This document shows, piece by piece, positions 1 to 32,418 of a DNA stretch of 64,000 nt. The translations under genes were made by a program, and so were the position numbers. The stretch is from NCBI GenBank assembly GCA_027297745.1, contig JAPUHK010000024.1, positions 994 through 64,993 of the forward strand, in the 5' to 3' direction. Each line of letters starts with the position of its first letter. Positions within the stretch are counted from its first letter, which is position 1. The notes under the pieces are model-generated. The model searched no databases. It saw only the letters and a list, made by a program, of their open reading frames with translations, and had not been told where the DNA came from. The DNA is from Planctomycetota bacterium. GTDB taxonomy: Bacteria > Planctomycetota > PLA2.

Positions 1-1004
1 CGCCGCCAGCAGCAGGTCCGTCGACTCGACGCCGATGCGGGAGGCGACGGAGCCCAGCTCGACCCAGGTGACGACCAACGCCTCGCCCCGCCCGAGATCC
101 AAATGCCGGCGCTCCAGGGCGTCGGGCTCGCGCACGCGGATGCCGAGGCCGGCGATGCGCACCTCCTGTAGCTCGTCGCCGTACAGCGCGTCTCCGAAGG
201 AGAACGAGCTTCGATCTTCGTCTTGCGGCGCCGCAACCGCGACGATCTCATCGGTAGGCCAGGGCTCGCGCGCAACCCGGTCGCGTTCACGCAACACGGC
301 CGCCACGTCGATGTCGAGCGGACGGCCGCGCCGCACGACGCGCAGTACGACGTCGTCGTCCCGCAACTCGTCCTCGAGACCGTTCAGCCTGTCGATCGTG
401 TCCCTCAGCGGTCCGGCGGGCTGCAGCAGGAGGTCGCCGGGCTCGAGGCCGATCCTGCGCGCCAGTGTGGATCCCGCGTCCAATTCCGTGACGAGCAGCG
501 CGGTCTGCTTCAGCCGCAGTTGCTTGATCAGCACGGGACTCACCTCACGCGTGACGATCCCGAGCCCTTCGATCTCCCAGGACCCTGGGTGGCGCCTCTC
601 CTTTTGCGCCAGCTTGTTGCGCCTGTTCTCGGCCCAACGCAGGATGCCGAACCGCCGCCGCGCGTCCATGGACCGGTAGCGTTCCGGAGGCTCGGACACG
701 GCCTGTGCGCCGTCCGCCAGCAGCACGTGGCGTTGTGCGGCGGCCACGAGCCTGTACACGCGCCGGCGCACCTCGACGTCCTCGTGGCCGGCCGCGTGTT
801 TCAGGCGCGGCAGCGCGCTCTTGCCGAGGCGCTGGAGCGCCTGCTCGGCTGCGCTGCGTTGCGCGGGTTCCGCATGTCCCAGGCGCTCGATGAGGGCGTC
901 GATGCGCGCCCCTCCGGACTCCTGGGCGCTTGCGACGGTAGCCGCCGGCAGCAGCAGCAGCGCGGCCACGAGCGGCCGCAGGAAGGTCTGGCTGCAGGGG
1001 CGCA
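1..1004 (-). CDS. Secreted PDZ/HEAT-repeat protein, paralog C. It runs off the window edge, so the 3' end is missing.
   Basis: Manual reverse-strand translation from the ATG at 1004 gives MRPCSQTFLRPLVAALLLLPAATVASAQ (signal peptide). A HEAT-like HxxxxVRRRV motif follows. The frame stays open to position 1. It is absent from the ORF track because no stop codon lies inside the window. It parallels the genes at 1048-2109 and 2162-3109. Confidence 0.6.
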
Positions 1005-1047
1005 TCCGTCGCTTTCACGCGGACGCGGATCGCGCCCGCAACGCCCC

Positions 1048-2109
1048 CTAGTTTCCCTGCTTTTGCCGGTCCCGCAAGACCGCACCCACATCGATGCGCA
1101 CGGGCGCCCCGTCGCGCTGCAGGACGAGCATCACGTCCTCCGTCTCGGCCAGCAGCAGCAGTTCGTCGAGGTCGGCCGCGTTTCGGAGGGGCTTGCCGTT
1201 CAAGCGGCGCAGCAGGTCCCCCTTGCGCAGGCCGATGCGCTCGCCGAACGACCCCGGCTCGAGCTTGTCGACGACCCACCCGTGTCCGCCGAGGATGCCG
1301 ACGGGCGTCGACGGGCTGCGCAGCCAGACGCCCACGGCGGGCGCCCGCACGGTGGCGGCCGGGTCGTTCGCACCGACGAGGACCCACTTGATCGCGGCCT
1401 TGCCGCCCGCTTGCCGCATCACGATGCGGAATTGCTGCGGTGCGGGTTGCGCCGGGAACTTCACATCCTTCAGGAACGGGTACTGCGTCTTGAGCTGCGC
1501 TTCGGTGCCTCGCGCCTTCAGGCGACGGTTCGCTTGCGGGCCGGCGCCGGCGGGCGTGCGCGTGCCTGTGAGCGCGAACTGACCCCCGCCCACGCTGCGC
1601 AGCGCGTACTTCGTACGGGCGCCGTTCTCGTCTTTGTGCACGCCGCGCACGTTCCCCGCCAGAACCCCAAGCGCAAGCGCAGCTGCACCCCGCACGCCTA
1701 CCTGCTGGACGATTTCCAGGCGGACGCGCGCCTGATTGATCTTGTTCGGCACGCCCTGCACGATCTGCGGCCGGATGACGAGGACCATGCCGTTCCCGCC
1801 CACCTGCAGGACGGTGTCGGGGTCCCGTTGCGGCTGCGGCCGGGGGTAAGGAGGCTCACCGTCGATGAGCGTGATCAGGCGTTGCACGCGGCGGCGCACT
1901 TCGGCGTCCCTGTGGTGCAGCGCTTTGCGCAGGGCGGGCAGCGCTTCCTCGCCGCGCGCCAGCAGCCGGTCCTCGGCCGCGCCGCGTTCGGCGGGATCGG
2001 GGTGGCCCAGGGCCGCGATCAGATCTTCGGGGGGGGCGTCCTTGCCTGCCGCGTCCGCGACGCCGGTTGCGAGCAGAAGCGCCGGCGCCAACGCGAACAG
2101 GAAACGCAT
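1048..2109 (-). CDS. Secreted PDZ-domain protein with an N-terminal HEAT-like repeat, paralog B.
   Basis: MRFLFALAPALLLATGVADA is a signal peptide. A HEAT-like segment (HHRDAEVRRRVQRL) follows. The C-terminal PDZ-like region reads GILGGHGWVVDKLEPGSFGERIGLRKGDLLRRLNGKPL. The ATG at 2109 is an internal Met of the track ORF. Confidence 0.65.
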   Translation of the reverse strand: MRFLFALAPALLLATGVADAAGKDAPPEDLIAALGHPDPAERGAAEDRLLARGEEALPALRKALHHRDAEVRRRVQRLITLIDGEPPYPRPQPQRDPDTVLQVGGNGMVLVIRPQIVQGVPNKINQARVRLEIVQQVGVRGAAALALGVLAGNVRGVHKDENGARTKYALRSVGGGQFALTGTRTPAGAGPQANRRLKARGTEAQLKTQYPFLKDVKFPAQPAPQQFRIVMRQAGGKAAIKWVLVGANDPAATVRAPAVGVWLRSPSTPVGILGGHGWVVDKLEPGSFGERIGLRKGDLLRRLNGKPLRNAADLDELLLLAETEDVMLVLQRDGAPVRIDVGAVLRDRQKQGN

Positions 2110-2161
2110 GCCATCTACCTCCCGGCCTGCCGAGAGGCCTGGGCCGAAGGCTCTAGTTTCC

Positions 2162-3109
2162 CTAGTCTTGCGACTTCCGCAAGGCTGCGGCCACATCGAT
2201 CTTGCGAGGCCTTGCGCGGCGTACGATTTCGAGCTCGAGGCCCTTGCGCATGATGCGCTCGTCGTTGAGGTCGAGCGCCCTGGAGTCGTCCAGCGTCTCG
2301 CCGTTGAGCCTGACGATCACGTCGTGGCGGCGCAGGCCCGCGCGCGCGGCCGGAGAGCCGCGCAGGACCTCCGTGACGATGTAGCCGGCGCCTTCCGGGA
2401 GCTCCAGGTGGTAGGCCAGCTCCCGGGAGGGCCGTTGCAGCCGCACGCCGAAGTGTCCCAGCGCGAGCCCCCTCGGCAGTCGGCCCGTGATGCGGATCAG
2501 CCCCTCGCCCTCGAAGCGCTTACCCCCATCCGCCACGCGGGCGGGCCGTTCCAGGCCGATGCCCAGAAAGCTGAAGCGCTTCAGGAACGGGTGCTTTTTC
2601 TGCAGCGCTGCCAGCGTGCCCGAGTCGGTGATGCGGCGCGTCTTACCGTCACGGCCGGCCACGCCGGCGTCGAGCTTGTAGACGCCGCCGCCGTCGCTGA
2701 TCAGGCGGTAGTCGATGCGCTCGCCGGACTCGGGGTCGCGGAAGCTGCCTTCCATGGTCTCCGCCGTGACGCCCGGCTTGTTCCCGATCACGATGCGCAC
2801 GCCACCGCTGAAGACGTGCGTGCCTACGGGGCGGAAGCCGCGCAGGATGCGTTCGATCTGGGTGCGCTCCTCCGGGCTCGCCTCGCGCAACGCCGCGCGC
2901 AGCGGTTTCAGCGCAGGGCGGCCGATGGCGGCCAGCCTGCGTTCGGCTTCCGTGCGCTTGAGCGCATCGCGGTGCCGAAGCTGCTCGATCAGCGTGCGGA
3001 TCTCCTCGGTCTTTGCAGCCGCGGGGTCCGGCGCGGGTTGCGGTTCGTCCTGGGCCAGCGCGGCGTGCGCGGTCCAGAGGATCAGGAGCAGAAGAATGGG
3101 ATAGCGCAT
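2162..3109 (-). CDS. Secreted PDZ-domain protein with an N-terminal HEAT-like repeat, paralog A.
   Basis: Signal peptide MRYPILLLLILWTAHAALA. HEAT-like segment LRHRDALKRTEAERRLAAIG. C-terminal PDZ GAGYIVTEVLRGSPAARAGLRRHDVIVRLNGETL. Its ATG lies 1 nt downstream of the anti-sigma stop codon. Confidence 0.7.
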   Translation of the reverse strand: MRYPILLLLILWTAHAALAQDEPQPAPDPAAAKTEEIRTLIEQLRHRDALKRTEAERRLAAIGRPALKPLRAALREASPEERTQIERILRGFRPVGTHVFSGGVRIVIGNKPGVTAETMEGSFRDPESGERIDYRLISDGGGVYKLDAGVAGRDGKTRRITDSGTLAALQKKHPFLKRFSFLGIGLERPARVADGGKRFEGEGLIRITGRLPRGLALGHFGVRLQRPSRELAYHLELPEGAGYIVTEVLRGSPAARAGLRRHDVIVRLNGETLDDSRALDLNDERIMRKGLELEIVRRARPRKIDVAAALRKSQD

Positions 3110-3110
3110 G

Positions 3111-3911
3111 TCAATCGTTCCTGATGAAGGTGATGCCCTCGTGCTTTTTCCGGAGCTCTTCCAACGTACCCTCGTCCTCCCGGATCACGGGAGGGCCTCC
3201 CTCCAGGTTGACGAGCACGAGCTTGAAGCGGCCGTTGCCGAGCCTGAACGTGCTGGCGTAAAAGCGGGTGCCCGCGGGAAGCGCGCGCGGGAAGCTGCCG
3301 TCCTCCAGGTTTCCGCGCGCGATCGAGGAAACCACCACGCTCAGAAAGCCCGGGTCGCGTACGTTCTCAAAGGCCAACTCGAGCTGCGCGATTGTGTCGC
3401 GCACCCGGTTCAGCTGCCGGCGCTCGGAGTCCGTCAGGCGAAGGTGCTGCAGGTCGTCGAGGCGCCGTGCGAGGTCGGTCCGGTGGATGCCCGAACGCAG
3501 ATCGATCAGCTGCCCGTTGAGCTTCTCATACGGTATGGCCGGCCCGAGCTCCGCCGCCCGGCGCAAGAGCGCCTCCGTCTCTGCGAGAGTGATGGCGACT
3601 TCCGTCGGCGGAGTGTCGCCGCGTCCGAACCAGAACGCGGCAGCGTGGGTCAGCAGCAGGATCGCCGCCGCAGCCGCCAGGCCACGTACCGACCAACCGC
3701 GCAGGTTCACCGGCGGGCGTGCGCGCACCTGATCCGCCGTAAACGCCGCCTGCGTCGTCGGGAGCGCTGCGCTGAGCCGCTGCAATGCTTGCAGCTGCTC
3801 CAGCCGCTGCTGCAGCGAGGGTTCCTTGCGCAGGCGTTCCTCGAGCCGCGCGCGATCGGCGCCGGCCAGGCGTCCGTCCAGATGCAGGGAGAGCAACAGA
3901 TGATCGTTCAC
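3111..3911 (-). CDS. Anti-sigma factor with a single transmembrane helix, partner of the upstream ECF sigma factor.
   Basis: A GTG start (VNDHLLLSLHLDGRLAGADRARLEERL) overlaps the sigma stop codon as GTGA. The N-terminal LSxxLDGxL motif is typical of anti-sigma factors. There is one TM helix (GLAAAAAILLLTHAAAFWF) followed by a periplasmic domain. Confidence 0.7.
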   Translation of the reverse strand: MNDHLLLSLHLDGRLAGADRARLEERLRKEPSLQQRLEQLQALQRLSAALPTTQAAFTADQVRARPPVNLRGWSVRGLAAAAAILLLTHAAAFWFGRGDTPPTEVAITLAETEALLRRAAELGPAIPYEKLNGQLIDLRSGIHRTDLARRLDDLQHLRLTDSERRQLNRVRDTIAQLELAFENVRDPGFLSVVVSSIARGNLEDGSFPRALPAGTRFYASTFRLGNGRFKLVLVNLEGGPPVIREDEGTLEELRKKHEGITFIRND

Positions 3912-4513
3912 AGCCACTTCCTCATGCGTTCGAGCACCTTGCGCCGCGCGCGGGCCAGCCGCGTGCTCACGGTCTTCGAGCCGCAGCCGCAAACCACCGA
4001 GGCCTGCTCGTAGCTCAGGCCCTGCACGGCGCACAGCACGTAGACCTCGCGGAACTTGCGCGGCAGCGCGGCCACGGTGGCGCGCAGCGCCTCCTGCGCT
4101 TCCGACAGCACGGCCTGCTCGGCCGGACTCGGCAGCGGCGCGGGGCCGAACTGGTGCTGTTGCGCAGCGCGCTTCTGGTACTTGTCGCGCGCCGCGCGGC
4201 GCCGATAGCCGTCGAGGCACAGGTTGCGCGTGACGGCCCGGATCCAGGCGCGGAAGGGCCGCGTGGGATCGTAGGCCTCAGGCTTACGCAGCAGGCGGAA
4301 GAAGACTTCCTGCCCGATGTCCTCGGCCTGGTCGCGGTCACCCGTCATGAGCCGGGCGAGATCTACGACGCGGTCCCGCCAGCGTTCCACGAGCTCGTCG
4401 AAGGCGGAGCCGTCCCCCTGTGCCACGCGGGCGGCCAGGAACTCGTCCGGGACCGCCGGGGTGGCGTCCGACTCGCGCGCAGCCTGCATCCAGGGACTTA
4501 CGCGCCCCGGCAC
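3908..4513 (-). CDS. ECF (sigma-24 family) RNA polymerase sigma factor.
   Basis: Region-2-like FDELVERWRDRVVDLARLMTGDRDQAEDIGQEVFFRLL. Region-4 helix-turn-helix LSYEQASVVCGCGSKTVSTRLARARRKV. About 200 aa. Confidence 0.85.
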   Translation of the reverse strand: MPGRVSPWMQAARESDATPAVPDEFLAARVAQGDGSAFDELVERWRDRVVDLARLMTGDRDQAEDIGQEVFFRLLRKPEAYDPTRPFRAWIRAVTRNLCLDGYRRRAARDKYQKRAAQQHQFGPAPLPSPAEQAVLSEAQEALRATVAALPRKFREVYVLCAVQGLSYEQASVVCGCGSKTVSTRLARARRKVLERMRKWL

Positions 4514-4526
4514 GGTACTGCTCCCG

Positions 4527-5369
4527 TTACTTTTGGGCCGCCTCGAGGCGCTCCAGGAGCTGCTCGAAGCGCTTCTCGAGCCGGTCCAGGCGCTTCGTCA
4601 ACTCGCGCTCGCGCTCGGTCACCACGGCCGCCGGCTCGAGGAGGACCACCTCCCACCTGCTTGGCTTCAGCTCCCGGAACTTCCAGTGCTGCGGGCGCGA
4701 CGGTTCGCGGTCGCCCGCCTTGCGCATCTCCTTCAGCAACTCCAGGCGGTGTTCGCTGCGCAGCACGGCGGGCTCGTCGCCGGCCTTGCGCGCCTCGACC
4801 AGCGCCGCTTCTTCGCGCGCGATCCAACGCTGCAAGGGCTGGCCCCCAAAGCCGCTGTGCAGCCTGAGGCGCATGCGCGTCACCTGCTCCTGGGCCTTCT
4901 CGAGCCGGCGGCCGATGTCGTCGTAGTCGCGCCGGGGGCGCACGGGTCGCGGCGGAGCGCCCGGCTCCACCTCGACCAGCTCCATATCGACGCGCTCCTC
5001 ACGCCGCCCGCCGAGCTTGATCTCGTCCGAGATCTCCCGGGAGCCGCGGATCAGCTTGTAGCGCACGACGTCGCCCTCGTGGAAGCGGCGCACCGCCTCC
5101 ACCAGCCCCTCCGGACCCTCGATGCGGGTGCCGCCGAACTCCACCAGCACGTCGCCGGTCTTGAAGCCGGCGGCGGCTGCGGCCGATCCCTCGACCACCT
5201 CCTGGATCACTGCGCCGGACTTGACCTTCTCAGGCAGTCCGTACAGTTGCCGCAGCTCGTCGCTGGCAGGCGCGACGCTCACGCCCAAGAAGCCGGTCCG
5301 CTGCTCCTTGGCCGCCGCGGGGGCGATGGCCAGGGCCAGGATGAATAGGGGCAGGGCTCTTCCGATCAT
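4527..5369 (-). CDS. Secreted PDZ-domain protein with a C-terminal coiled coil; first gene of the sigma/anti-sigma operon.
   Basis: Signal peptide MIGRALPLFILALAIAPAAA. PDZ GAVIQEVVEGSAAAAAGFKTGDVLVEFGG. A GGAGAG ribosome-binding site precedes the ATG. It ends 14 nt upstream of the sigma start codon. Confidence 0.7.
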   Translation of the reverse strand: MIGRALPLFILALAIAPAAAKEQRTGFLGVSVAPASDELRQLYGLPEKVKSGAVIQEVVEGSAAAAAGFKTGDVLVEFGGTRIEGPEGLVEAVRRFHEGDVVRYKLIRGSREISDEIKLGGRREERVDMELVEVEPGAPPRPVRPRRDYDDIGRRLEKAQEQVTRMRLRLHSGFGGQPLQRWIAREEAALVEARKAGDEPAVLRSEHRLELLKEMRKAGDREPSRPQHWKFRELKPSRWEVVLLEPAAVVTERERELTKRLDRLEKRFEQLLERLEAAQK

Positions 5370-5529
5370 GACGCTCTCCTTCTGACCTCTCTACGACGGA
5401 AGGCCGGGGCGGAGCTAGTGATTCCCGGGGGGCAATCGCCCGCGCCCGGCGCCTCACAACGAGAGGGCCGGCCGCGGGTAAGCCATAGGGAGGTTGGAAG
5501 CGGGTTGTTAGACTCCTAGCCCCGTGAGC

Positions 5530-7149
5530 ATGACGATCCACGTTCGCAGCCCCGATCAGGACGACCGGCGCCTCGAGTTCCACAAGGCGAAGATCACGGT
5601 CGGGAGCAGCCCCATGTGCGACATCACCATCGCCGGGGACGCCGTGGCCGACGAGCAGGCGGTCCTGGTTCAGCGCGGCGACCACTTCGAGATCTTCGAT
5701 ATCGGGCGCGACGGGGCGGTGCTGGTGGGGGGCCGCCCGTGCCGGCACGGCGACGTCCTGGCGGGGCAGGAGATCTGGATCGGCGACGCGGTCTTGATGC
5801 CGCAGGCGCCCACGAAGGGAGTAGCGTTCGTGGACCGGGGAGAGGGACGCGTGACGGCCACCGTCTCGTCGACCCTCTCGAGCGTCGGCGGGACGTCCGG
5901 CGCGCCCGCCGAGCCGCGCCTGCGCCCGCTGCTCAACGAGGTCGTACGCCTGATCCACTCCATCGGCCGCAGCGAGAACATCTTCGAATCGATCCTCGAC
6001 TCCGTGTTCAGCAGCGCGCCGGTGCTGCGCGCCTTCCTCGCGCTGCGCGATCCCGAAGGCGAGCTGGTGGTCAAGGCGCACCGCAACCGGGAGCACGACG
6101 CGGACGACCAGCCGATCCAGGTCAGCCAGACGCTGGTGGGCAAGGTGCTCGACAGTGGAGAGGCGCTGCTCACCTCGGACGCGGAGGGGGACCCCAACCT
6201 GAACCTGGCGCAGTCGATCCAGAGCCTGCGCATCAAGGCCGCCATCTGCGTACCGCTGGTGGTCGACGGCAAGGTGATCGGGCTTCTGTACGGCGACAAC
6301 CGCGAGCAGCCGGGGATCCTCAACCGCGAGAACCTCGCTTTCCTGAGCGCCCTGGCCGGAGTGGCGGCCGTCGCCGTCGAGAAGTTCCGCTTGCTCGAGG
6401 AATACGACCAAAAGCTGCAGATCGAGCAGGCGCTGGCCATCGCGCGCTCCATTCACCGCAACTTCCTGCCCGCGGGACCGCCGCAGATAGAGGGCTTCGA
6501 CGTCTACGGCGACAGCGAGTCGTGCGACGCGACGGGCGGCGACTATTACGACTTCTTCCCGCTGAGCGAGGACCGCCTGGGCGTCGTGATCGCGGACGTG
6601 GCCGGGCACGGGATCGGCCCCGCCCTGCTGATGGCCAGCGTGCGCGCCACGCTGCGGGCGCTGCTGGTGGACGGGGCGTCGCTGAACGACCTCATGTTCC
6701 GCCTGAACGAGCTGATCAGCGCCGACGTCCGGGACGGCCGCTTCATCACGCTGTTCTTCGGCCTCTTCGACCGCAAGGAGGGGCGGCTGCAGCACATCGG
6801 CGCGGGCCACACGCCCACGATCTGGGTTCGCGGCGGCGGCGGCGCGCCGCGGCAGATCCGCAGCGGGGGCCCCCCGCTGGGCGTTATGAGCGGCGTGCGC
6901 TACGAGGTGGGCGAGGAGATCGCCTTCGAGCCCGGCGACGTCTTCCTGTTCTCCACGGACGGCATCCACGAGGCCATCGATCCGGCCGGCAAGCATTTCG
7001 GCCTGGAGCGGCTGGAGCAGAACCTCAAGGATCACGCGTCAGAGAGCGCTCAGGAGATGGTGGCCGCGGTCCACACGGAGCTGAACGTCCACGTAGACGG
7101 CGAGCCCCTGCGCGACGACACGACATTGGTGGTCGTGAAGATCGTCTGA
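5530..7149 (+). CDS. FHA-GAF-PP2C protein: a serine/threonine phosphatase of the SpoIIE/RsbU type.
   Basis: N-terminal FHA domain (RLEFHKAKITVGSSPMCDITIAGDAVADEQAVLVQRGDHFEIFD). Central GAF-like region. C-terminal PP2C motifs GGDYYDF, VIADVAGHG and DGRFITLFFGLFD. A GTG alternative start lies at 5524. Confidence 0.8.
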   Translation: MTIHVRSPDQDDRRLEFHKAKITVGSSPMCDITIAGDAVADEQAVLVQRGDHFEIFDIGRDGAVLVGGRPCRHGDVLAGQEIWIGDAVLMPQAPTKGVAFVDRGEGRVTATVSSTLSSVGGTSGAPAEPRLRPLLNEVVRLIHSIGRSENIFESILDSVFSSAPVLRAFLALRDPEGELVVKAHRNREHDADDQPIQVSQTLVGKVLDSGEALLTSDAEGDPNLNLAQSIQSLRIKAAICVPLVVDGKVIGLLYGDNREQPGILNRENLAFLSALAGVAAVAVEKFRLLEEYDQKLQIEQALAIARSIHRNFLPAGPPQIEGFDVYGDSESCDATGGDYYDFFPLSEDRLGVVIADVAGHGIGPALLMASVRATLRALLVDGASLNDLMFRLNELISADVRDGRFITLFFGLFDRKEGRLQHIGAGHTPTIWVRGGGGAPRQIRSGGPPLGVMSGVRYEVGEEIAFEPGDVFLFSTDGIHEAIDPAGKHFGLERLEQNLKDHASESAQEMVAAVHTELNVHVDGEPLRDDTTLVVVKIV

Positions 7150-7329
7150 CCGCGTCGCAGGCTCGCGACGGGAGTGGGAGCGGGATCGGGAGAGGAAGCG
7201 AGCGATGGTTCGGGCAGACGTGCGGCCCTGCCGGCGCCCGACGAGGCGTGGAGACGAACGGGCCCGGCTGGGTCTACGCTCCCGTTCCCCCTCCTGCTCC
7301 CGGGCCAAGCCCTCTTCAGAGGCGCGGCC

Positions 7330-7560
7330 CTACTTCTTCGCCTTGGTCTTGGGAGCCTGCTTGGTGGGGGCCGGCTCCTGCTTTTCGGGGCACTCGCACC
7401 AGCCCACGAGGTACCCGCAGTCCAGGCAGAGATCGAAGAGCTCGTGGTCGCAGACGACGCAGCGATAGACGGAGCCCGGGTCCTCATACGCGGTGGCGCC
7501 GCAGTCCTCGCACCGCATCTTCGGGCGGGCAGTCAAACGACGGTAATTGATTTCGTCCAT
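7330..7560 (-). CDS. Small cysteine-rich, zinc-ribbon-like protein.
   Basis: Four metal-ligand pairs (CEDC, CVVC, CLDC, CEC) within 76 aa, followed by a Lys-rich tail. There is no clear SD sequence. The first codons are AT-rich for this genome, so an internal start at MRCEDC is possible. Confidence 0.4.
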   Translation of the reverse strand: MDEINYRRLTARPKMRCEDCGATAYEDPGSVYRCVVCDHELFDLCLDCGYLVGWCECPEKQEPAPTKQAPKTKAKK

Positions 7561-7621: not shown

Positions 7622-8479
7622 TCAGTGCGAGGCCTTCCGGGTCGCCGCGGCGGCCCGGTCGACCAACCTCGCGTCCTTTTCCAGCCCCTGGCCGCGCAGG
7701 TAGCGGGCCCATGCCCCGTAGCGCTCGTGTGTGTCCAACTGCAGGGCCCACAAGAGCTTGGAGCGACAAACCGGGCACAGCAACAGGGGCCGCCGATGCT
7801 CCTCGTCACGGGTCGCCACCCCGTTCATGAGGCAGCGGTAGAAGGTGCAATGTTTCATCGCCAGAACGTGCCCGGCTTCATGGACCGCCATGGCCAAGAG
7901 CCGGCGGCGGGAGCCCGCGGGATCTGCGCTCTGCCAGACCCGGGCCGTGCTGACGATGGCCACCCCCAAGCGCTCCGACCCCCAGCCTTGGACGTAGTTC
8001 AGTCCCTTGGAGTAGAGGTCCCGGTCAGTCACGGCCACCGTGATCAGGGCGTCCTTGGGTCGGCGGGCGGCCACCGCGCGGGCCAGGCCGGTGATGTGCA
8101 CCTGGCGGCGCCGGCGGTTGTACGCGCGCAGCGGGATCGCCCGTGGCTCGAGCAGCTTGGCGGGCCGGCCGTAGAAGGCCGCCAGGCTCGCGCGCACTCG
8201 TTCAGGTAAGCCGGGATCTGTGGCCGGGCGGGTCAGCATGGGCACGACATAGAGCGTCGTGCGGGCGGCGGGCGGCCGGGCCGCGGACGCCTTGTATTCG
8301 GCAAAGGTCTGGCCCTCCTCGCGGTACTGGTCGAGCCACTCGCCGTCCTTCGGCTGGCCGAGGTGCTTCCAGACGCCCGGCGGCACAGGCACGTCCGCGC
8401 GCTTCCCGCCGTACGGGACGAGGAGCAGGAGGCACACTGCGACCGCCTTCATGAGCTGCCCGCGCGCGCGGGCGCTCAT
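7622..8479 (-). CDS. Secreted archaemetzincin-like zinc metallopeptidase (M54 family).
   Basis: HEAGHVLAMKHC followed by CTFYRCLMNG and CPVCRSKL matches the archaemetzincin signature HExxHxxGxxHC plus a Cys4 site. Signal peptide MSARARGQLMKAVAVCLLLLVPYGG. An alternative ATG lies at 8452. The remainder of the 956-aa track ORF is antisense noise. Confidence 0.75.
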   Translation of the reverse strand: MSARARGQLMKAVAVCLLLLVPYGGKRADVPVPPGVWKHLGQPKDGEWLDQYREEGQTFAEYKASAARPPAARTTLYVVPMLTRPATDPGLPERVRASLAAFYGRPAKLLEPRAIPLRAYNRRRRQVHITGLARAVAARRPKDALITVAVTDRDLYSKGLNYVQGWGSERLGVAIVSTARVWQSADPAGSRRRLLAMAVHEAGHVLAMKHCTFYRCLMNGVATRDEEHRRPLLLCPVCRSKLLWALQLDTHERYGAWARYLRGQGLEKDARLVDRAAAATRKASH

Positions 8480-8512
8480 GGTACCCGGCGTACCCGTCCG
8501 GGGGCCCTCCGT

Positions 8513-9658
8513 ATGATCGGTGGCTTGGCCAAGTTGCAAGCGTGTCCCCGCTGCCGCGCGCTGTTGGAGGCGGGCACCAAGAAGTGCCCGTACTGCAGCA
8601 CGCAGGTACAGAAGGCGGCCGTTCTCACGGCCCACGTCCCCGGCGACCTGGGCGACGCCGGCGCCGCGTATCCGCGCGCCGGCCGTGTGCTGATCGGCGT
8701 GTTCGTGGCGCTGTACCTGCTCATGCTCTACTTCGACCCCAACCGGGATGCGGGGATCCAGGGATGGACCACGCGGCCGTCGCATGCGGCCACATACGCC
8801 TTCGGAACGAGCAACCTGTTCGGCATCCGCGCATGCGGCCAGTCCTGGCGCCTCGTGTCGGCTCTGTTCATGCACCTGAGCTTGCTGCACCTGGCCATGA
8901 ACTCGGTCGCCGTGCTGATCCTGGCGCCGCTCGTGGTAGCGGTGCTCGGGCTCAAACGTGCGGGGGTGTTGTTCCTGTTGACCGGCCTGGCGGGCGCGGC
9001 GGCAAGCCATCTGGCGGGCTACGGCGGCGCGGGCGCATCCGGGGCGGTGTGCGGCGCCATAGGAGCGCTGTTGGCCTTCGGCAAACGGGAGGCGGGCCTG
9101 CGCGGCGCGGTCCTGATGCGCGCGATGAAGCAGTGGGTCATGATCCTGGTGCTGTGGACGGTGGTGGCGCTGGCCGCCAACATGAACATCGACCACATCG
9201 CCCACTGGGTCGGATTCGCCGCCGGGCTGGCGCTGGGTTGGTGGGGTGAAGGCGGCAGGGCCGGGCGGCTCAGCGGCGCGCCGCTCTGGAACGCGCTTTT
9301 CTACGCGGGCGCCGCGGCCGTCGTGGCCACGGCGTTCTTCGTGGGCGTGCAGGTGCAGCGCAGCTTTCACGCCCGGGACGTGGCGTTCTACAACCGGGGC
9401 TCCTTCCAGGCCTTGCAGAGGATCCAGCTCAGGCTTCACGGTGGGGGGGAACCTCTCGCGGCGAAGCTGGATCTGCCCGACCCGCCTCCGGGTTCGGAAG
9501 AGCTCGACCAGGCCTTGCGCGAGGCGTGGCAGGCCGTCCGCGAGAGTCCTTCGGCCGCCGCGGCGGTCTCCTCCTTCGACGCCGCCGAGCTGCTCTGGCA
9601 AGCTTGGAGAATCGAGAGCATGTGCCGGTACGGCCCGTGCGCCAACCCGGCGTCGTAA
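8513..9658 (+). CDS. Rhomboid-family intramembrane serine protease with an N-terminal zinc ribbon.
   Basis: N-terminal CPRCRALLEAGTKKCPYCS. Multiple TM helices. Catalytic-type GASGAVCGAIGAL (GxSG) and a downstream His in a TM segment (IAHWVGFAAGLALG). Start taken at the internal Met MIGGLAKLQ. Confidence 0.75.
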   Translation: MIGGLAKLQACPRCRALLEAGTKKCPYCSTQVQKAAVLTAHVPGDLGDAGAAYPRAGRVLIGVFVALYLLMLYFDPNRDAGIQGWTTRPSHAATYAFGTSNLFGIRACGQSWRLVSALFMHLSLLHLAMNSVAVLILAPLVVAVLGLKRAGVLFLLTGLAGAAASHLAGYGGAGASGAVCGAIGALLAFGKREAGLRGAVLMRAMKQWVMILVLWTVVALAANMNIDHIAHWVGFAAGLALGWWGEGGRAGRLSGAPLWNALFYAGAAAVVATAFFVGVQVQRSFHARDVAFYNRGSFQALQRIQLRLHGGGEPLAAKLDLPDPPPGSEELDQALREAWQAVRESPSAAAAVSSFDAAELLWQAWRIESMCRYGPCANPAS

Positions 9659-30682: not shown

Positions 30683-32320
30683 CTAGCCTGACCCTGGCGG
30701 CTTGATGCCGGCCCACCGCTCCAGGTAGGGCAGCACGACCTCACTCACCTCTTCCCGCGGGCGGCTGCCGAGGTAGCGTGCCGCCTCGCGCGAGCCCGCC
30801 TCGGGGTCGATCTGCACGAGCGCGCCGATGGCGAAGAACTGATCCCCGGCCCTCGGATGGGCGAGGAAGTCGAGCAGGATCCGTTCCGCCCTTGGGCCGC
30901 CCATCTTGCCCAGCGCGCCCAGAAGATACGGCCGCACGCCGTCCCACCCGGGGCGCAGCAGCTTGTCCTCGAAGTGAGGCGCGCCCGCGGGCTCCCGCAG
31001 TTCCCCAAGCGCGCCGGCGGCGCTATAGAAGAGACCGGCGTCCTCCGACTCCGCGACGAGGTCGAGCAGGTAGCGGCGCGTCTCCGGCGTGTCCGCAGCG
31101 CCCATGGCGCGCAGGATCGTGTAGCGCGCGGAGCGGGGGAATGCCGGATCACCGGCCGCCGTGATGAGGTGCGCCTCGTACCCGGGCGACCAGGCCTCGC
31201 GCAGGAGGCGCTCGAACCACGCGCCTTGCCTGCCTCCGCGCAGCAAGGCCAGCAGCGCGAGCAAGCCCTGCTCGCCGTGGCCGTTCAGCTTCTCGATGGC
31301 TTCGAGCGCCTCCTCGTCCAGCTTGTCTTGCTGATGCTGGTTGCGCACGGCCTCCTCTGCCTCGAGCGCTGCCTGGAGCGCCGGCGCGGGGACCTTCAAG
31401 GCCGCCGCGGCGCGCTGAAGCTTCGAGTCCCGCGTGCGCGGGCGGCCGCGCTGCTTGGCCGCTTGCTGTTTTGCAACCGGCCTCTCAGCCGAGGCGGCAC
31501 GCGCGGCGGCGAGCTGCTCGACTAGAACACGTTCGCGCTCCCGCGCCGCCTCCAGTTCCCGGTGCAGGTCAGGGCCGTGCGGCGCGCGCGCGACCCGCTG
31601 CGCCGGCTCCGCGTCCGACCTTCCGGGCAACGCGGCGCCAATGCCCACGCCGACGATTCCCGTGGCGGCGACGGCGGCGGTAACGATGGCGGCGGTCTTG
31701 TACTTCATGACTTCTCCAAGGATGAGCTGGGACGACGCGTGCGCGCAGTCGGCCAGGAACCAGGGCACCGCGAGCAGGGGAAGGGCGAGCCAGGGTGCGA
31801 GCGAGCCGAGCAGGAGCGTGCGCGCACGCTGGAGCCGCTTCTTGACGGCGGACTGCGTAATGCCGAGCAGCCCGGCTACCTCGTTTGTCGTGAGCCCTTC
31901 GAAGTAGTGCAGCACGACCGGGTCGCGGTAGCCTGCCGCAAGCCGGTCCACGCCGTCGCGCAGGCGACGGAACTCCTCGGCGCGCATGGCCGCCGCCGCG
32001 GGCGTCGGCGCCTGCGGCAAGTGTGCGAGCCGCCGGGAAAGCTCGTGTTGCCGCCGGTGTTGCGCCTTGTGCCGGTACGCGATGCGCACGACCGCCGTGA
32101 CGAGCCAGGGCATGACCGGGGCGTCGAGCGGCCCCCCGCGTTTGTGCAGTAGCGAGAGGTAGGCGGTGTGGACCGCGTCCTCAGCCTCGTCCGGCGAGCC
32201 GATGCGGCGCGCCACCGCGAGCAGCTTCGGCCGCGTCCGGCGCACGACCTCCTCGGCCGCCTCCTCGTCCGCGTCCCGCAGGTAGCGGTCGACGAGATCT
32301 TCCAGCGTCTCCCTGGCCAT
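30683..32320 (-). CDS. ECF sigma factor fused to a transmembrane segment and a C-terminal HEAT/armadillo-like repeat domain.
   Basis: N-terminal sigma regions 2 and 4 (DAVHTAYLSLLHKRGG..., LTTNEVAGLLGITQSAVKKRLQRART). A TM helix (AAIVTAAVAATGIVGVGIGAAL). A coiled coil and HEAT-like repeats. It is a single uninterrupted 545-aa frame. Confidence 0.65.
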   Translation of the reverse strand: MARETLEDLVDRYLRDADEEAAEEVVRRTRPKLLAVARRIGSPDEAEDAVHTAYLSLLHKRGGPLDAPVMPWLVTAVVRIAYRHKAQHRRQHELSRRLAHLPQAPTPAAAAMRAEEFRRLRDGVDRLAAGYRDPVVLHYFEGLTTNEVAGLLGITQSAVKKRLQRARTLLLGSLAPWLALPLLAVPWFLADCAHASSQLILGEVMKYKTAAIVTAAVAATGIVGVGIGAALPGRSDAEPAQRVARAPHGPDLHRELEAARERERVLVEQLAAARAASAERPVAKQQAAKQRGRPRTRDSKLQRAAAALKVPAPALQAALEAEEAVRNQHQQDKLDEEALEAIEKLNGHGEQGLLALLALLRGGRQGAWFERLLREAWSPGYEAHLITAAGDPAFPRSARYTILRAMGAADTPETRRYLLDLVAESEDAGLFYSAAGALGELREPAGAPHFEDKLLRPGWDGVRPYLLGALGKMGGPRAERILLDFLAHPRAGDQFFAIGALVQIDPEAGSREAARYLGSRPREEVSEVVLPYLERWAGIKPPGSG

Positions 32321-32418
32321 GGCACCCCCATAGTGCCTGCCGCGGGCGCGCGGTGACACACGTTAAGGGTCGCCTCCCCGGGCCGGACGCCGCGAGGCGA
32401 AGTCCAAGGGGCTAGGAG

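Follow-up and report, generated by a model that had tools for sequence, protein, structure and literature searches.

A Planctomycetota ECF sigma factor operon in which the anti-sigma factor and secreted PDZ proteins appear to share a small module

Pairs of ECF sigma and anti-sigma factors form the third great pillar of signalling in bacteria, and the Planctomycetota are especially rich in uncharacterised pairs of this kind; for most ECF groups, to our knowledge, the input mechanism is unknown. The RsiW pathway of Bacillus subtilis uses PrsW and RasP, and we know of no PDZ partner genes in the RsiW operon. In the E. coli sigma-E/RseA/RseB/DegS/RseP pathway (PMC8103513), a single-pass anti-sigma factor sequesters the ECF sigma factor, the product of an adjacent gene guards the periplasmic domain of that anti-sigma factor, expression of the sigma and anti-sigma genes is coupled through translation, and DegS unites the PDZ sensor and the site-1 protease in one protein. 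The algU-mucA-mucB-mucC-mucD operon of Pseudomonas encodes a sigma factor, an anti-sigma factor, periplasmic accessory proteins and the switch-modulating MucD (PMC3815931), which is an active DegP-type protease with its catalytic motif. In the Bacteroidota, ECF sigma factors of the GFO_1088/PG0214 type (NF058625) are encoded together with the secreted, PDZ-containing S41 peptidase GFO_1087 (NF058627).

The operon described here lies within a 64,000-nucleotide stretch of contig JAPUHK010000024.1 (the window); it is chromosomal and comes from an uncultured lineage of the Planctomycetota. Sequence and ORF translations place six genes in series on the minus strand, A (4527–5369), B (3908–4513), C (3111–3911), D (2162–3109), E (1048–2109) and F (1–1005), and A to E come out at the same lengths (280, 201, 266, 315 and 353 amino acids) when genes are called independently on a near-identical contig, in agreement with the co-directional array of six proposed in an earlier note on this DNA. 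As read directly from the sequence, A and B are separated by 13 nt, B and C overlap as GTGA, C and D meet as TGA C ATG with a 1-nt gap, and gaps of 52 and 42 nt precede E and F, respectively; the overlap and the 1-nt gap are as the earlier note had described them. No terminator-like site was detected on the minus strand between positions 1 and 7500, and thus none inside the array. The same note had called the region a regulatory island, a term that composition does not justify because the G+C content is uniform (0.66–0.73) along it.

The resemblance to the E. coli pathway includes the translational coupling of the sigma and anti-sigma genes, a single-pass anti-sigma factor that would hold the sigma factor, a proposed periplasmic guard encoded alongside, and PDZ domains as the proposed sensors of exposed C-terminal peptides. 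Unlike DegS, however, the PDZ domains reside on soluble proteins without a serine-protease domain, searches gave no match to the RseB family, the tip of the anti-sigma factor and the accessory protein have a module in common, and C is unrelated in sequence to RseA outside the N-terminal domain. By analogy, we infer an RseB/DegS-like switch logic whose sensor PDZ stands apart from any protease. As in the algU-muc operon, sigma, anti-sigma and PDZ-bearing accessory genes stand together, but A, D, E and F lack the catalytic motif of MucD and carry HEAT-like helices, the shared module or a coiled coil in place of its protease domain.

Gene A, which opens the conserved operon, encodes a secreted protein with a signal peptide, a PDZ domain at residues 23–119 (window 5013–5303) and about 150 residues of helical or coiled-coil sequence. 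The domain scores 45.2 bits with Pfam PDZ_2 (cut-off 27), its carboxylate-binding loop is FLGV, and DegP/HtrA models align to A over the PDZ1 part only. The product of gene B starts at GTG 4513 (201 amino acids), while a start at the alternative ATG 4489 would yield 193, the length found in distant homologs. It contains sigma regions 2 and 4 only, within about 200 residues, as is characteristic of ECF (group 4) sigma factors, and matches Sigma70_r2 (PF04542; 59.9 bits, cut-off 24), Sigma70_r4_2 (PF08281; 49.7 bits, cut-off 25.7) and TIGR02937 (92.6 bits, cut-off 42.9), which confirms the earlier assignment. B and MCZ6571770.1, a protein of a Planctomycetota MAG, do not differ in sequence; the nearest solved relatives of B are SigE (PDB: 9m9d; 89 bits), CnrH, SigW (of the SigW-RsiW complex, PDB: 5wuq) and E. 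coli sigma-E. Among NCBIfam models no equivalog cut-off was reached, and the match to NF058625 (96.1 bits) falls below the family cut-off of 130.

Gene C encodes a single-pass anti-sigma factor with a cytoplasmic helical anti-sigma domain (residues 3–49), a transmembrane helix at about residues 75–96 (window about 3624–3683), and a periplasmic part composed of a helical bundle (103–202) followed by a C-terminal beta-beta-beta-alpha module. The N-terminal helical domain, the single transmembrane segment and a gene coupled directly behind that of the sigma factor are the features of class I anti-sigma factors. RsiW binds zinc via HxxxCxxC, whereas residues 1–60 of C include no cysteine and score 14.3 bits with zf-HC2 (cut-off 22.2); C was therefore excluded as a zinc-binding anti-sigma factor (ZAS). 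By eye, none of A, C and D ends in a hydrophobic residue.

The three genes behind C had been described as tandem paralogs, and this holds fully for two of them. D (315 amino acids) consists of a signal peptide, four helices at residues 29–91 that resemble a HEAT pair (window 2837–3025), a beta module with a helix that includes residues 133–178 (window 2576–2713; the shared module discussed below), a disordered linker and a PDZ domain at 218–309 (window 2183–2458). E (353 amino acids) has a signal peptide, a HEAT pair with HHRDAEVRRRV (window 1870–2028), a beta region longer than that of D with the shared module at residues 167–215 (window 1465–1611), and a PDZ domain at 264–345 (window 1075–1320; PDZ_6 36.2 bits), the region to which matches with PDB relatives are confined. 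D and E align over their full length with 28% identity (E value 2e-11). The product of gene F, whose first 335 residues are present before the gene runs off the window edge, differs: a signal peptide and a HEAT pair with GHEDVEVRRRV (window 742–903) are followed by a divergent PDZ-like domain (window 286–573) and the start of a second PDZ. Its homolog P0114 (88% identity, 566 amino acids) comprises a HEAT pair, a weak PDZ-like domain, a PDZ domain and two FlgT_C-like beta domains, and in both P0114 and a further homolog of 567 amino acids (P0198), which likewise ends in two FlgT_C-like beta domains, the second PDZ scores above the cut-off. Neither F nor P0114 contains the middle module of D and E, and a profile of that module gives no F match; the likeness of E and F lies in the N-terminal helices (56% identity). 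The signal peptide ascribed to all three proteins is present in each; the C-terminal PDZ applies to D and E, while the F homolog continues past its PDZ. The HxDxxVRRRV motif of a HEAT-like repeat, likewise ascribed to all three, is present in E and F only, with HEAT_2 scores below the cut-off of 27.7 (22.0 and 25.4 bits). The helical pair of D has diverged, and the HEAT segment of E matches D in a 688-ORF database (E value 2.5e-4). PDZ domains exceed the Pfam cut-off in A, D and E, and the core and phi-G-phi carboxylate-binding loops are conserved in the PDZ proteins. A relative with a HEAT-x-PDZ arrangement (P0016) has no sigma gene nearby.

A module of about 42 amino acids is located at the periplasmic C-terminus of C (residues 217–260; window 3132–3263, minus strand) and in the middle of D and E. 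In C it reads Y..LG.GR[FY]..., then (D/H)EGT.EEL, with three predicted strands and a helix, and residues E247, G248, T249, E251, E252 and L253 do not vary among 9 homologs. In an hhalign comparison, C 217–258 aligns with residues 133–174 of the D family with a probability of 85.6% (E value 5.6e-6, score 47.3; E value 2.4e-5 in an earlier run with fewer sequences), compared with a maximum score of 22.9 among 150 column shuffles. BLASTP gives 36% identity over 55 residues, the anti-sigma C-terminal profile matches the D-like protein of locus L004 (E value 3.8e-7; 688 ORFs), and the best non-self matches of the D-middle profile, which scores E at 90.6 bits, are all anti-sigma factors. The window's own C and D match weakly (HMM E value 0.0084), and the case rests on these family profiles. 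AF2 models of C and D, built from shallow alignments and of moderate pLDDT (70 and 62), place strands and helix in the same order, in C as strands 217–225, 228–235 and 242–249 and helix 250–256. On this profile evidence, the module at the tip of C is homologous to that in the middle of D and E, a relationship that could also have arisen by local domain shuffling between neighbouring genes without any interaction of their products.

Profile, motif and fold searches, with Pfam and NCBIfam, revealed no S1 or S41 protease domain in genes A to F, so that the cryptic protease which would have made these proteins simply HtrA- or CtpA-like was not found, and the PDZ proteins carry signal peptides and no protease domain, as had been proposed. 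An HtrA/DegS/DegP (S1C) protease was rejected, as HtrA models match the PDZ parts only, with neither a Trypsin/Trypsin_2 match nor GxSGG. An S41 processing peptidase (CtpA/Prc) was rejected likewise: weak matches (E values 3e-4 to 0.2) are restricted to the PDZ, as is that of D to NF058627 (E value 0.09), the S41 catalytic domain (PF03572) is absent, and D and E terminate directly behind the PDZ. No RseB/MucB family match was obtained for A, D, E or F in Pfam or NCBIfam at E values up to 1. It might be argued that D and E are pseudo-proteases which retain a remnant of the S1C C-terminal barrel before the PDZ, since BLASTP alignment of D with DegQ homologs extends from residue 102 to the PDZ and pairs VIGNKPGVTAET with AIGNPFG..TVT and LGIGLERP with GIGFAIP. 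However, residues 95–215 of D alone match neither DegQ (best E value 0.74) nor any Pfam family at E values up to 10, hhalign of the D-family middle profile with an HtrA alignment gives a probability of 0.1%, all D-family and C-family members are at noise level with an HtrA protease-domain HMM, and GxSGG is absent. The N-terminal barrel with its His and Asp has no counterpart either, D 29–91 being helical in the AF2 model, and we regard such descent as very improbable.

The order A-B-C-D is kept in Planctomycetota metagenome contigs L004–L009 and L011–L017, where the anti-sigma and sigma factors share 32–43% and 57–63% identity with those of the window. The sigma gene is preceded by a homolog of A in L005, L006, L007, L011, L012, L014, L015 and L017, the 4-nt B/C overlap recurs in L004–L008, and the C/D gap is 1–4 nt at all readable junctions (L003, L004, L006–L010, L012, L015, L016). 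Every distant locus with downstream DNA present has a single D-like gene, of which D is the ortholog; the array is therefore a lineage-specific expansion. The tandem triplication of the earlier note gives way to a conserved state of one such gene and an array confined to close relatives, of differing architectures and with at least four members in L018, where a fourth HEAT gene follows F. A Memo-like gene, unrelated to the others, is also retained downstream. Adjacency by chance, with gene order merely inherited in one clade and no functional coupling, would accord with the retention of that gene and with the origin of all related loci from one poorly sampled Planctomycetota clade. Such coincidence seems exceedingly improbable, as the overlaps and 1–4 nt junctions persist while the proteins fall to 32–43% identity, intergenic DNA is otherwise unalignable, and a module is common to C and D. 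With the A-B-C-D order and the short C/D junction conserved and a homologous module common to C and D/E, the case for linking the PDZ proteins functionally to the switch is better grounded than by adjacency alone.

Since the tip of C and a secreted PDZ protein share a module, the operon looks like an envelope-stress switch unlike the textbook design. Our tentative reading, to which we give slightly less than an even chance, is an envelope-sensing ECF switch in which docking of D on C couples PDZ sensing to sigma release. C would hold B at the membrane, and D would be produced in step with C, as their stop and start codons are 1–4 nt apart in every readable locus. D would dock on, or compete for, the periplasmic tip of C via the shared beta module, while the PDZ domains of D and A would recognise C-terminal peptides that envelope proteins expose. 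Such recognition may then alter the shielding of C from proteases provided in trans, with the result that B would be released and transcribe its own operon. In the window's lineage D has expanded into the array, through which more kinds of signals or partners may be accommodated; E keeps the putative docking module, and F and the fourth gene only the HEAT pair plus other domains. That the PDZ proteins act as input to the switch rather than as output is what we infer here from sequence. The opposite assignment, which places them in the sigma regulon as periplasmic holdases or envelope quality-control adaptors that simply happen to be co-transcribed, is somewhat unlikely. It draws on PDZ similarity that is highest to HtrA-family PDZ1, the precedent of the HtrA-type MucD (PMC3815931), the extra beta domains and missing docking module of F, an array copy number that differs between lineages, as often in effector families, and the occurrence of P0016 outside a sigma context, but it leaves unexplained both the module shared by C and D/E and the 1–4 nt spacing between C and D in every locus examined. 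Moreover, MucD itself feeds back on the switch, and output and input are therefore not exclusive. Were the PDZ proteins only output, the locus would be a stress operon of the ordinary kind, its helpers degenerate and HtrA-like. Were docking to hold, PDZ peptide sensing would be separable from the site-1 protease, with exchangeable soluble partners to deliver it, and a new small interaction module would mark which secreted protein pairs with which anti-sigma factor. A bolder form of the docking proposal, which we consider unlikely, takes the beta-beta-beta-alpha module to be a previously undescribed homotypic docking device by which protease-less PDZ arms plug onto the anti-sigma tip, with an expandable array (D, E and beyond) that would integrate several peptide signals and offer a modular alternative to DegS, with its fusion of sensor and protease.

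Upstream of A, a divergent intergenic region (5370–5523) separates the operon from a gene on the plus strand (5524–7149) for a 541-residue FHA-GAF-SpoIIE (PP2C) phosphatase (SpoIIE 159 bits, GAF 54.6 bits, FHA 23.1 bits). A CGTAGA box lies at 5390–5395 on the minus strand, about 20 nt upstream of the A start codon, and CGTA[GA]A is invariant across 5 otherwise diverged upstream regions. This would be in keeping with an ECF-type -10 element and with autoregulation; no conserved -35 element was found in the upstream regions of A, and a search for sigma-type promoters in the rest of the window returned no further copies. The GGAGTCTAACAAC box (5504–5516) adjoins the phosphatase start codon, and GGAGTCTAACA recurs without change in L012, L014 and L017, with 0.4 matches expected per window. 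In the latter three loci, too, the phosphatase gene adjoins the A homolog (41–50% identity), and its product is possibly a second, cytoplasmic input. The phosphatase could even be the main input, acting through phosphorylation of sigma factor, anti-sigma factor or partner, with the PDZ proteins accessory or unrelated; its recurrent position beside A, the invariant box in the shared intergenic region and the existence of phospho-regulated ECF systems (review PMC8999054) speak for such control. We consider it quite improbable, because the position is taken in L011 by the end of another gene (by eye a putative RND-type transporter), no kinase, STAS or anti-anti-sigma gene occurs within about 4 kb, the transmembrane and periplasmic architecture of C suggests an extracytoplasmic input, and a neighbour kept within one clade is weak evidence. 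In L012, the phosphatase gene, A, B, C, D and the Memo gene are all contained within 4.7 kb.

Six genes follow one another on the minus strand of the window, and the genes called on a metagenome contig of almost the same sequence encode the same products. They comprise gene A (4527-5369; 280 aa), coding for a secreted PDZ/coiled-coil protein; gene B (3908-4513; 201 aa), for an ECF sigma factor; gene C (3111-3911; 266 aa), for its anti-sigma factor; and genes D (2162-3109; 315 aa), E (1048-2109; 353 aa) and F (1-1005; >335 aa, extending past the edge of the window), for HEAT-like/PDZ proteins. An earlier note on this DNA, largely right in its description apart from a count of three paralogs that needs correction, held that B and C overlap and that C and D are 1 nt apart. 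Both junctions can be read from the sequence: GTGA ends B and starts C, and C is followed by D as TGA C ATG. At the remaining junctions the spacing is 13 nt (A-B), 52 nt (D-E) and 42 nt (E-F), and terminator-like sites are absent from the minus strand of positions 1-7500. The label of an "island" was not sustained, since the composition of the window is uniform (G+C 70%) and gives no sign of foreign origin; neither tRNA nor Rfam features were found within the 64 kb. The neighbours at 9659-30183 (a rhodanese, two cysteine-desulfurase-like class-V aminotransferases, SufB/D- and SufC-like proteins, and NADH dehydrogenase subunits H, L, M and N) are ordinary chromosomal genes, which supports a core-genome location.

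The product of gene B contains Sigma70_r2 and Sigma70_r4_2 domains and scores 92.6 bits with the ECF superfamily model (cut-off 42.9); the solved structures nearest to it are SigE, CnrH, SigW and E. coli sigma-E. A second ECF-type sigma gene (matches to Sigma70_r4_2 and Sigma70_ECF) is present at 30683-32362 on the minus strand in a 559-aa stop-to-stop frame, and its product may carry a long C-terminal extension. The PDZ domains of A, D and E are above the Pfam cut-offs, and the HEAT_2 matches in E and F are below threshold. In one subclade the A homologs (L006:3-758, L007:1-438 and L008:1-126) carry a long poly-acidic C-terminal tail (…EDELEDDDEDDDGDDDEDDDD), absent in the A of the window. 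D and E are full-length paralogs (28% identity; E value 2e-11), and from the extent of their divergence the paralogy is judged to be old, but F, counted as the third paralog, differs in kind. E and F have in common an N-terminal helical pair (56% identity) and the PDZ domain. The 566-aa F homolog P0114 (88% identity) consists of the HEAT pair, a divergent PDZ-like domain, a PDZ domain and two FlgT_C-like beta domains, and the module that occupies the middle of D and E is absent from this F type. The motif HxDxxVRRRV, attributed to all three proteins, is present in E and F but not in D; it also occurs in a fourth gene encoding a signal peptide and HEAT pair (L018:3235-3612; …HPDPEVRRRLRRL…), which comes after the F homolog in a close relative. 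The array thus has at least four members and reaches beyond the left edge of the window. A more distant relative, P0016 (L019:5614-6615), has a signal peptide, HEAT pair, beta region and PDZ domain. Its gene stands alone: the adjacent genes belong to DNA repair (PolX/PHP, HhH-GPD) and a sigma gene is absent from the vicinity, so that the HEAT-PDZ architecture also exists outside sigma operons.

The sequence GGGAAACTAG is found identically on the minus strand at 1048-1057, the 3' end of E (…QGN-stop), and at 2153-2162, just past the stop of D (…QD-stop-GN-stop). It was considered as a repeated promoter and rejected: the two copies fall where the 3' ends of the paralogs D and E correspond, and the window contains no more copies than expected by chance. 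D appears, on this comparison, to have acquired an earlier stop than the ancestral paralog end; the close homologs P0001 and P0002 read on through that position to …KGD and …EGD.

The earlier note saw no obvious protease triad in the PDZ proteins, and no cryptic S1 or S41 domain was found in them by profile, Pfam or motif search. Matches to the HtrA, DegS, Ctp and RseP models are confined to the PDZ parts, no protease family was found in Pfam, and there is no GxSGG motif. The BLASTP alignment of D with DegQ runs upstream of the PDZ domain and is suggestive by eye. That D and E retain part of an S1 protease was nonetheless rejected: the DegQ signal is lost once the PDZ domain is left out (best E value 0.74), the hhalign alignment of D with HtrA has a probability of 0.1%, the HMM of the HtrA protease domain gives no signal, and no Pfam match is obtained at E values up to 10. 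On these comparisons the pseudo-HtrA reading of D and E is rejected, save at very remote ancestry. Two protease genes are located 2-4 kb from the operon: an M54 (archaemetzincin-like) metallopeptidase at 7622-8479 on the minus strand, and a rhomboid intramembrane protease at 8363-9658 on the plus strand, whose N-terminus matches a zinc ribbon weakly and below the cut-off (E value 0.009). Both are candidates for trans-acting proteases. As listed, the two ORFs overlap, and one start codon needs refinement.

The periplasmic C-terminus of the anti-sigma factor and the middle of D and E contain a common module of about 42 aa. The last ~45 residues of C follow the pattern Y..LG.GR[FY]..., then (D/H)EGT.EEL, and the middle of D and E follows Y.L.S.G.G.[YF].L..., then GT...L...[HY].FL; by BLASTP the two regions are 36% identical over 55 aa. 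Comparison of the C and D family alignments with hhalign gave an E value of 2.4e-5 in a first run and, with more sequences, a probability of 85.6% and an E value of 5.6e-6 over 41 columns (C 217-258 to D 133-174). Against this score of 47.3, the 150 controls with shuffled columns averaged 12.5 and did not exceed 22.9. Among 688 six-frame ORFs, the anti-sigma C-terminal profile finds the D-like protein of contig L004 (E value 3.8e-7), while the best non-self matches of the reverse profile, built from the middle of D, are all anti-sigma factors, at the expected position. Both AF2 models have three strands and a helix at the module. No relative of it was found in Pfam or PDB sequences, the best PDB match being spurious (E value 0.0015 over 15 residues). 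A match of the anti-sigma helical bundle to the HEAT region of D in the first hhalign run was discarded, since it disappears with larger alignments and only the 41-column module aligns.

The family is rare. Close homologs of D number four among 5.8 billion clusters and those of C number ten. When E without its PDZ domain was searched exhaustively, no match outside its own family extended past the shared N-terminal segment of signal peptide and HEAT pair. Relatives are carried by a single genome among the species representatives (Planctomycetota MAG.302, L009) and by eight contigs from JGI, and B is identical to MCZ6571770.1, a Planctomycetota MAG protein. The order A-B-C-D is kept in contigs whose anti-sigma and sigma factors are 32-43% and 57-63% identical, respectively; the B/C overlap is 4 nt in L004-L008, and the C/D gap is 1-4 nt at every readable junction. 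In the loci with downstream DNA (L004, L009 and L012), the only D-like gene (32-40% identity to D) is followed by a Memo-like gene; the ancestral unit is therefore A-B-C-D. The Memo-like gene has the orientation of the D gene (L004:2457-3170, L009:1625-2839 and L012:4033-4722; PF01875, 127.7 bits in L009). Genes past D were found in L001, L002 and L018, and by these comparisons the array of D, E, F and further genes is an expansion confined to the close relatives of the window.

MucD belongs to the algU-mucABCD operon (PMC3815931), and by analogy the PDZ proteins could be outputs of the regulon, which is the main rival to the model given below. Such a role would account for the resemblance of the PDZ domains to those of HtrA and for the variation in the array; it leaves unexplained, however, both the shared module and the invariant coupling of C to D, and we regard it as rather unlikely. 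The locus combines an ECF sigma and single-pass anti-sigma pair with exported, protease-less PDZ proteins in a conserved tight operon, and C shares its module with D and E. The earlier proposal of a possible input role for the PDZ proteins is a reasonable functional idea. In the model that we tentatively prefer, at somewhat short of an even chance, D would be made along with C and, via the shared module, would either mimic the periplasmic tip of C or dock on it. Both D and A would bind exposed C-termini through their PDZ domains, peptide binding would change the protection of C against trans-acting proteases, and release of B would follow. The logic would be similar to that of RseA/RseB/DegS (PMC8103513) and of the algU operon. 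Unlike in those systems, the presumed PDZ sensor carries no protease domain, an RseB-family protein was not found, and the accessory protein has a module in common with the anti-sigma factor. We found no paper in the literature that treats PDZ, HEAT repeat, anti-sigma factor and ECF together.

A divergent FHA-GAF-SpoIIE (PP2C) phosphatase gene (5524-7149, plus strand) adjoins A, as it does in all but one of the four distant loci that cover that side. Cytoplasmic input via this conserved phosphatase would be compatible with the other models, though as an explanation we consider it improbable. Upstream of A, a CGTA[GA]A box is invariant in five otherwise unalignable regions (alignment A5), 20-40 nt before the start (5390-5395, minus strand, in the window), and is a candidate ECF-type -10 element. 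The five loci have no conserved -35 element; in L014 and L017, but neither in the window nor in L012, the box is preceded by an AAC motif at a distance of 17-18 nt. In a search for the regulon, further copies of the upstream boxes of A were not enriched elsewhere in the window, and no sigma-70-type promoter was found in 1-7500. A second box, GGAGTCTAACA (5504-5516), is invariant in the window, L012, L014 and L017, where 4-7 nt separate it from the GTG start codon of the phosphatase. Read on the phosphatase strand as TGTTAGACTCC, it looks like an extended -10 element (TGnTAnnnT). This extended -10-like box lies ~9-12 nt before the start codon, so close that the phosphatase mRNA would be leaderless.
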